A stretch of DNA of 64,000 bases, from IMG/VR virus record IMGVR_UViG_3300033463_000104, positions 3,819 through 67,818 of that record. One strand, written 5' to 3'. The DNA comes from a virus. Lineage: Duplodnaviria; Caudoviricetes. This document shows positions 62,520 through 62,604 of the stretch, piece by piece; position 1 is the stretch's first letter, and every line of letters begins with the position of its first letter. The translations under genes and the position numbers were made by a program. The notes beneath the pieces were generated by a model, which was not told the origin of the DNA, did not search any database, and worked only from the letters and a program-made list of their open reading frames with translations.

Positions 62520-62604
62520 GTTACGTGCGAGGTAACGGACATAGACATTTAGATGCCCAGATTAGTAGGCGTATGCTCGCACCATACACCGAACACCTGG
62601 GCAT
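62520..62604 (+). ncRNA. structured 5' leader with 7-nt loop-loop pairing (copy 2)
   Basis: GTTAC[GTGCGAG]GTAAC; ATGCCCAG/CTGGGCAT enclosing GGCGTATG[CTCGCAC]CATACACC; own TATCTTTG at 62507-62514. Confidence 0.7.

Follow-up and report, generated by a model that had tools for sequence, protein, structure and literature searches.

Two HNH homing-endonuclease genes of a Caudoviricetes phage each stand behind a promoter and two hairpins whose 7-nt loops are exact complements, which raises the question of what RNA this leader forms and what it does for the gene that follows. Both copies lie in the window, by which we mean the whole 64,000-nt stretch analysed (positions 3,819 to 67,818 of IMG/VR record IMGVR_UViG_3300033463_000104). 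We conclude that the ~95-nt leader is probably a previously undescribed RNA family, of the cis-acting leader/attenuator kind and outside the families described so far. Its structure is near certain, and its function is one that we infer.

Two leader copies with complementary loops

Copy 2 lies on the plus strand. Its promoter (62484–62514) comprises a TTG −33 element (62484–62486), a 20-nt spacer and the −7 element TATCTTTG (62507–62514). A gap of 5 nt separates TATCTTTG from the first hairpin, H1 (62520–62536), which has a 5-bp stem (62520–62524 with 62532–62536) that two U–G pairs could lengthen, and a loop, L1, of sequence GTGCGAG (62525–62531). A single-stranded, purine-rich linker of 16 nt (62537–62552), with AUAGA inside it, leads to a composite hairpin (62553–62604). 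This is built from an outer stem P2 (62553–62560 with 62597–62604), an internal loop in which AGUA (62564–62567) faces GAA (62591–62593), and an inner stem P3 (62568–62575 with 62583–62590), the loop of which, L3, reads CTCGCAC (62576–62582) and is the exact reverse complement of L1. A U-rich tail of the terminator U-tract type (62605–62613) then runs from the end of P2 to the ATG at 62614, 9 nt away. The gene that starts there (62614–63255, plus strand) encodes a 213-aa HNH homing endonuclease with NUMOD4 and I-HmuI NUMOD-like domains, and matches the HNH endonuclease family phrog_59 (E = 3e-40).

Copy 1 (45974–46083, minus strand) scores 105 bits with the covariance model described below. 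It repeats the order promoter, H1, purine-rich linker, composite hairpin, U-tract and ATG, with TATCTTTG at 46083–46076, H1 at 46069–46051 (L1 46063–46057), P2 at 46037–46031 and 45992–45986, AGUA at 46026–46023, GAA at 45999–45997, P3 at 46022–46015 and 46007–46000 (L3 46014–46008) and the U-rich tail at 45985–45974. Both copies place TTG at −33 and TATCTTTG at −7 and share the composite of P2, AGUA/GAA internal loop and P3; the gap from P2 to the ATG is 12 nt in copy 1, giving a range of 9–12 nt in the window. The copy 1 stems are unlike those of copy 2, and its loops, GTCGCAG and CTGCGAC, differ from the copy 2 loops at three central positions, all three of which are compensated. The gene behind copy 1 (45386–45973, minus strand) is inserted before a helicase gene and encodes a 195-aa HNH homing endonuclease with NUMOD4, HNH_3 and NUMOD1 domains. 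The two nucleases, both of NUMOD4 type, are 34% identical.

The pairing of loops is far beyond chance at both loci. A search of both strands of the window for paired hairpins with exactly complementary 7-nt loops 20–150 nt apart finds just these two. When every stem must have 5 bp or more, the same search counts three pairs, copy 2 being scored on both strands, against a mean of 0.075 in 40 first-order Markov random windows. RNAfold recovers H1, P2 and P3 in each copy, and the whole 67.8-kb phage genome holds these two leaders and no more. The sequence-only reading, which had described a loop–loop paired leader present twice with compensatory changes, is confirmed at these positions. The computed energy of the loop duplex is −10.5 kcal/mol for cognate loops and −2.3 to −2.9 kcal/mol for cross-pairs between copies 1 and 2, so that the two loop pairs are predicted to be orthogonal.

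The kissing helix covaries across homologues

Two pattern scans of IMG/VR left loop complementarity free. The first demanded TATCTTTG and loop triplets made only of G and C, and returned 67 matches, 28 of them complementary where about 8 were expected; the full layout is present in around 24 of these, and none of the 39 non-complementary matches resembles the motif. The second fixed nothing but TTTG, AGUA, the two outermost bases of either loop and a C...GAA that follows the P3 loop, with both triplets free. Here 35 of 45 matches have perfectly complementary triplets, each at a chance of 1/64, and these 35 coincide exactly with the matches that have promoter, U-tract and ATG; the other ten lie in coding sequence. 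This set contains eight different triplets.

Six sequences, with the pseudoknot left out, went into a covariance model (model R1) that identified 41 copies among the retrieved loci, of which 35 are distinct. Three of its matches were beyond the reach of the patterns, with loops GGTCGAG, ATGACGG and GGTCCAG, and in each case the P3 loop is the exact complement. The long form of the leader therefore uses at least 11 different loop pairs, or 13 when short forms (below) are counted. One relative (L053) has four leader copies, and genomes with several copies use a different triplet in every one. When the promoter is not demanded, at least 120 stretches carry the two commonest loops, and TAnnTTTG stands just upstream of the first loop in 1 of the 120 listed. 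Most homologues were collected by patterns with some fixed bases, the covarying triplets never being among them, and the E-values of models R1 and R2 are rough.

In the resulting alignment (A4) the kissing helix is 99.6% Watson–Crick paired; six of its seven pairs change on both sides, with no one-sided change and no G–U pair. H1 is 96.7% paired and all six of its pairs change on both sides, and P3 and P2 are 92.8% and 84.9% paired. The covariation score is 0.734, compared with 0.206 for shuffles and 0.06–0.13 for controls in which the partner was slid. Through the pairing of the H1 and P3 loops the leader is thus, as read from covariation, a long-range pseudoknot closed by a 7-bp Watson–Crick kissing helix. 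The earlier claim of a conserved, cis-encoded structured leader with loop–loop pairing is borne out, and the covariance model that it called for yields many homologues with loops that are always complementary. G–U pairs in P3 and H1 are confined to the strand of the downstream gene, indicating that the folding molecule is the sense RNA and not DNA. Hardly tenable, then, is an element that works in DNA, either by offering a protein dimer two inverted half-sites of 7 bp or as a recombination or insertion site with no RNA structure: the loops do form an inverted repeat in DNA and the cassettes are mobile, but every half-site sits in the loop of a hairpin with an independently covarying stem, G–U pairs occur on one strand only, and loops differ between copies in one genome so that one protein could not read them all.

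A host-type promoter would place H1 at the start of the transcript

The spacing TTG-N20-TAnnTTTG is kept in 36 distinct upstream regions, and every copy has both elements ahead of it, about 20 nt apart. TTG at −33 and TAnnTTTG at −7 are the two parts of the consensus of the Bacteroidetes primary sigma factor (PMC7366714). Across homologues H1 begins 6–8 nt past the −7 octamer, from which it follows that H1 would be 5′-terminal in the transcript.

The composite hairpin has the shape of a terminator

In all 35 distinct copies at least five U occur in an 8-nt window that starts 0–3 nt past P2 (mean 6.3), a frequency that 26% of control regions before other ATGs reach. The U run stays with P2 in copies whose ATG sits further off, and the core pairs of P2 are C–G or G–C. 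P2 and the adjoining U-tract thus have the shape of an intrinsic terminator, though a composite one: a G+C-rich stem followed directly by a U-tract, placed between the promoter and the first start codon. Nearly all long-form copies have 9–16 nt between P2 and the ATG, which also falls 4–9 nt past the covariance-model match, and the ATG is within 9–25 nt in all copies when short forms are included.

The long form is not a simple hairpin, and a consensus terminator scan does not flag the leader. It departs from the canonical shape in its large internal loop, in its nested P3 and, in some copies, in a spacer of 2–5 nt ahead of the longest U run; short variants and the leaders of primase type described below come nearer to a simple short-loop terminator hairpin. 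Stepwise folding of both window copies gave no helix that competes for the P2 strands, the sole alternative being the L1–L3 pairing. In the consensus and in the folds the ATG and the 9–16 nt before it are unpaired, which leaves the start codon outside any helix. Two further candidates were rejected: the 5′ strand of P2 could pair with the start codon in copy 2 alone, a pairing that is not conserved, and neither is the ATG inside copy 2 P2 that might have opened a leader peptide. The structure had been proposed as possibly limiting translation of a toxic nuclease; with the start codon free and P2 plus U-tract terminator-shaped in 35 of 35 copies, attenuation of transcription is likelier than a purely translational limitation.

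A conserved internal loop and linker outside known RNA families

Every row of alignment A4 has AGUA in the 5′ strand of the internal loop and GAA in its 3′ strand, including the model-found copies that were free of pattern constraint. This loop, which joins P2 to P3, measures 7 × 6 nt in the long form. AGUA/GAA is the sequence of the sarcin–ricin (bulged-G, loop E) motif (PMC1865062), and by this comparison the leader's internal loop is a sequence match to that motif and a candidate for its fold. Readings as a hammerhead, a pistol or a k-turn were discarded by eye, since topology or consensus do not fit. The linker between H1 and P2 is 14–21 nt long with a consensus near RUAGAAAU in alignment A4, and a similar AUAGAGAGA occurs in leaders of primase type. 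A riboswitch would couple a conserved ligand pocket to an expression platform. The leader has conserved unpaired bases (AGUA/GAA and the linker), which fit a known structural module, and we found neither an alternative fold nor an association with metabolic genes.

Rfam 15 run over the whole window at the gathering threshold returned a tRNA and nothing else, a scan of 62300–62800 at E ≤ 10 had no match, and scans of eleven loci with long and short forms returned tRNAs only. The families covered include riboswitches, ribozymes, C4 antisense RNA, HEARO/omega RNA and the Bacteroid* motifs. The question of whether the motif was already catalogued is thereby answered, as no Rfam family matches the leader. 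Literature searches that covered kissing loops, leaders of phages, homing endonucleases and the promoters and terminators of Bacteroides brought up no description of it.

Distribution, short variants and a sister leader

The long form is found in about 29 IMG/VR contigs and shorter variants in about 19 more, so that the leader, which recurs in many Bacteroidota phages, is known from some 48 IMG/VR contigs, one Bacteroidales metagenome-assembled genome (MAG) and the present genome. The MAG supplied the one true copy of the long-form pattern across 185,579 species genomes. The copy 1 leader has no blastn match in cultured phages, and models R1 and R2 have none in the nearest cultured relatives as judged by primase, namely LoVEphage, Parabacteroides phage PF672P2 and Bacteroides phage BI-TP1.

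In the short variants P3 is 3 bp long, the loop is of the tandem G–A or the AGUA/GAA type and a long perfect P2 is followed by U5–U8; the genes after them encode HNH, T5orf172 and replication-initiator or DnaD-like proteins. Model R2 retrieves them marginally. They may be regarded as relatives by design and putative homologues, linked to the long form by that shared design and by marginal model scores. A PHROG scan of the genes beside them identified SSB, an exonuclease and a RusA-like resolvase, and no obvious antiterminator or repressor.

A sister leader precedes the primase-helicase gene in the window (53033–53124, minus strand), and we compared it with those of eight relatives (L208, L203, L221, L200, L053, L205, L211 and L201). 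The design consists of a promoter, a hairpin, a UUCG-capped terminator hairpin of 17–25 bp and a U run. The loop of the first hairpin is complementary to an 8–9-nt 5′ bulge in the terminator hairpin, through six different covarying pairings, and in the relatives a −7 motif of TAACTTTG or CATCTTTG type lies 6–8 nt before the hairpin. The principle of a 5′ hairpin that docks on unpaired bases of a promoter-proximal terminator is therefore native to the replication genes of these phages and not peculiar to HNH or other nuclease cassettes. The window's sister leader is abutted by a tRNA gene (53133–53209, minus strand; Rfam, 52 bits), in which the sequence-only reading had noted an oversized anticodon loop.

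The cassettes are mobile and the leader reassorts with nuclease genes

Promoter, leader and HNH gene of copy 2 together form an insertion (62471–63270, plus strand) between genes that are adjacent in a related phage. In that relative (L222) the site is empty: only a few bases separate the homologues of 62165–62470 and 63271–63507, and both leader and HNH gene are missing. The copy 1 site is empty in four relatives (L200, L188, L207 and L199) and occupied in three (L053, L009 and L198). An HNH/NUMOD reading frame that is present or absent at one and the same intergenic site identifies these units as freestanding homing-endonuclease cassettes, and the empty sites uphold the earlier view that the motif travels with nuclease cassettes.

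Leader and nuclease do not share one history. In contig L210/L226 a leader 90% identical to copy 2 stands at another site, before an HNH gene whose product has 31% identity. Elsewhere, leaders that are 97–99% identical precede HNH proteins only 32–39% identical, and conversely HNH proteins that are 91.5% identical carry leaders 72% identical with differing loop triplets. This mismatch indicates that promoter and leader are a module of their own, moving with nuclease reading frames and reassorting with them. The picture of a leader carried along with its HNH cassette is thus right in that the cassettes are mobile and incomplete in that leader and nuclease recombine independently.

The leader is also less selective than had been supposed. 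Reading frames that begin with the NUMOD4 pattern follow 27 of the 41 long-form matches, and most of the others stand before other HNH families (phrog_374 and phrog_953), the gene of an endonuclease VII-like protein, a DNA methylase or small reading frames of no assigned function. The proposed specificity for NUMOD4-HNH genes therefore falls, given these other HNH families, T5orf172/GIY-YIG-like genes and the DNA methylase, along with replication initiators behind short variants.

An insertion hot spot lies right after a gene ending in ...CCTTCTTTATTCAAATAA, where cassettes with three types of leader loop and very different HNH genes are found (L006, L041, L053:10046, L192, L202:8669, L204, L207, L216:1262, L217:6516 and L221:14494). 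Other cassettes stand directly after tRNA genes (L053:7839 and L198). In one relative an intact leader (L221:7790-7885) precedes an apparent C-terminal remnant of a NUMOD-like nuclease, which suggests that a nuclease reading frame may decay while its leader is retained.

A proposed kissing-loop attenuator and its alternatives

The reading we favour, at about even confidence, is that the portable promoter–leader module is a transcription attenuator in which P2 and the U-tract terminate and the kissing helix modulates read-through. The host-type promoter would start the RNA at H1, and polymerase may also arrive from upstream. The first ~95 nt fold into H1, which would be 5′-terminal, and the composite P2/P3 hairpin, with the U-tract behind, and L1 and L3 pair to give the 7-bp kissing helix. 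Close to the promoter and immediately ahead of the start codon, P2 with the U-tract would act as an intrinsic terminator, leaving nuclease mRNA to be made by the read-through fraction only. The extent to which polymerase reads through would be set or regulated by the kissing helix, a helix under very strong selection, which might pre-organise and stiffen the terminator, or might sterically hinder the hairpin at the polymerase exit channel and so suppress termination; a protein that reads the shape of the kissing complex is possible. As an outcome, expression of the mobile nuclease would be kept low or tied to the phage replication programme, and the leader probably throttles or times nuclease expression. 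Suppression of the latter kind has a published precedent in 'tug-of-war' constructs, where a nearby stable RNA structure upstream alters termination efficiency (10.64898/2026.06.17.733018).

A first point against attenuation is that essential replication genes stand downstream of related leaders, so that termination cannot be strong throughout. At some stage polymerase must read through to a substantial degree, and a terminator that is regulated or limits itself is therefore favoured over one that simply stops transcription. Three more considerations count against attenuation: an efficient terminator inside an operon would cut off downstream phage genes as well, the long-form hairpin is non-canonical, and we found no conserved antiterminator fold. 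A model in which a taut linker lets the kiss strain P2 was rejected, because the short forms have shorter stacks yet longer linkers.

A broader version of the attenuator can be put forward tentatively. Nuclease and primase-helicase leaders might exemplify a new class of attenuator whose 5′ hairpin pairs with bases left single-stranded in the terminator hairpin: those of the apical loop in the former and of the 5′ bulge in the latter. Its docking helix would be freely re-addressable and orthogonal within one genome, and would be read by the polymerase exit channel, sterically, or by a shape-specific, Rom-like phage protein. Such a device might time the replication module in a whole group of Bacteroidota phages, and nucleases might have captured it for expression exactly when homing is possible.

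The main rival is a purely translational or stabilising role, which we consider rather unlikely: no real termination would occur, and the kiss-locked fold would stabilise the mRNA 5′ end and might limit access of the 30S subunit, throttling translation of a toxic nuclease. It draws on the predicted position of H1 at the very 5′ end of the transcript, 6–8 nt past the −7 element, and on the tightly constrained distance between P2 and the ATG, which holds the start codon 9–16 nt from a very stable structure. Initiation in Bacteroidota proceeds without being driven by a Shine–Dalgarno sequence and relies on unstructured leaders, and in T4 the expression of homing endonucleases is under translational control. 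Against these points, the start codon and its preceding bases are never in a helix, the short forms are textbook terminators, and the U-tract keeps with P2 and not with the ATG, as in a terminator.

A lesser rival is a small RNA that acts in trans, which we judge improbable. The unit from promoter to U-tract would be a ~90-nt gene, its RNA protected at both ends and working, for example, through the linker or by binding a phage or host protein, and the downstream gene would be expressed by leak-through. Promoter, structured RNA and terminator are indeed the anatomy of a bacterial small RNA, the linker motif UAGARA is conserved and common to primase-type leaders, and the leader is far more conserved than the reading frame behind it (90–99% against 31–39%). 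The ATG, however, always lies within 9–25 nt, which argues for a role in cis, and no target or partner was identified. Nor could the loops address one common target, since they differ between copies.

That the leader cleaves itself as a ribozyme, or serves the nuclease as a guide RNA, is highly improbable. Conserved unpaired bases (AGUA/GAA and the linker) combined with a pseudoknot are also seen in small ribozymes, and ribozymes often lie near phage genes. The two-helix junction is, however, unlike the hammerhead, pistol, twister and HDV topologies by eye, and no Rfam ribozyme or guide-RNA model matches at E ≤ 10. As for a guide, the same leader stands before unrelated protein families, its free reassortment with reading frames is unlike a dedicated guide, and NUMOD4-HNH enzymes read DNA through protein domains. 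The sequence-only reading had raised both roles, and nothing speaks for either.

Relation to known regulatory RNAs

The leader of lambda PR′–tR′ is an attenuator based on a terminator. So is the 'zipper-type' attenuator of pLS20, which works on an intrinsic terminator in a leader (PMC13401043). Our leader resembles both in having a promoter and then a terminator hairpin with U-tract within ~100 nt ahead of the first gene, in an upstream RNA segment that would contact the terminator region, and in belonging to a mobile element or phage. It differs in that a hairpin loop would pair with the apical loop of the terminator and leave the stem intact, whereas in the known leader attenuators a strand competes for the stem.

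Fully complementary 7-nt hairpin loops also pair in ColE1 RNA I and RNA II, where the partners are sense and antisense transcripts, and in the antisense-induced attenuation of pT181 and pIP501 a kiss decides whether a terminator is used. The leader shares with the ColE1 type its two hairpins with fully complementary 7-nt loops. Unlike it, both loops belong to one RNA and one strand, with ~45 nt between them; an antisense gene is lacking, and the loop varies from copy to copy.

In the c4 immunity RNAs of P1 and P7 and the CI RNA of P4, loops pair with downstream sites on the same transcript, and compensatory changes in loop and target alter specificity. The present leader is likewise a phage leader RNA with intra-transcript loop pairing and compensatory change of specificity. 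It matches neither the C4 antisense RNA family of Rfam nor any other Rfam model, and its target is a terminator loop within 50 nt and not a ribosome-binding site. Hairpins of T4 I-TevI and mobE sequester the ribosome-binding site, with a late promoter inside the hairpin. There, too, a structured RNA and a dedicated promoter precede a freestanding or intron-borne nuclease gene, presumably to limit or delay the nuclease; in our leader, by contrast, the start region is free, with no start codon in a stem, and the promoter lies ahead of the whole structure. Like the 'tug-of-war' constructs (10.64898/2026.06.17.733018), the leader sets a stable fold beside an intrinsic terminator with no sequence overlap; those constructs abut the terminator through a very short spacer, whereas here a 14–21-nt linker intervenes and the fold would dock on the terminator loop.

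If confirmed, the leader would be a new and widespread RNA family in which the covariation of a kissing helix within one molecule is unusually clean. For the homing-endonuclease cassettes of Bacteroidota phages it would be the first regulatory leader to be described, and one that shows how selfish nuclease genes stay tolerable in tightly packed phage operons. A compact, portable module with a changeable docking helix would be a candidate source of orthogonal transcription control parts for Bacteroides, and would allow the influence of tertiary contacts with a terminator hairpin on termination to be studied.

Other promoter-like and terminator-like elements in the window

TAnnTTTG also occurs 3–7 nt before the ATG of many other genes of the window, for example at 1118, 41353, 42472, 48078, 49873 and 25422. 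This position predicts use of the octamer as a promoter in this phage, and much of the phage mRNA would then be leaderless or nearly so. Near-leaderless mRNA would be unusual, as fewer than 4% of Bacteroides 5′ untranslated regions are shorter than 10 nt (PMC7366714). At its very end the copy 1 HNH gene reads TATATTTG (45399–45406, minus strand; codons for Tyr-Ile-Trp), 20 nt before the helicase start codon, and the cassette may thus supply a promoter-like −7 element to the helicase gene that it displaced. A strong hairpin (57154–57183, plus strand) that resembles a terminator, U run included, closes a non-coding stretch of ~620 nt that heads the plus-strand gene arm; it would be another leader, here promoter-distal, that ends in a terminator ahead of genes.
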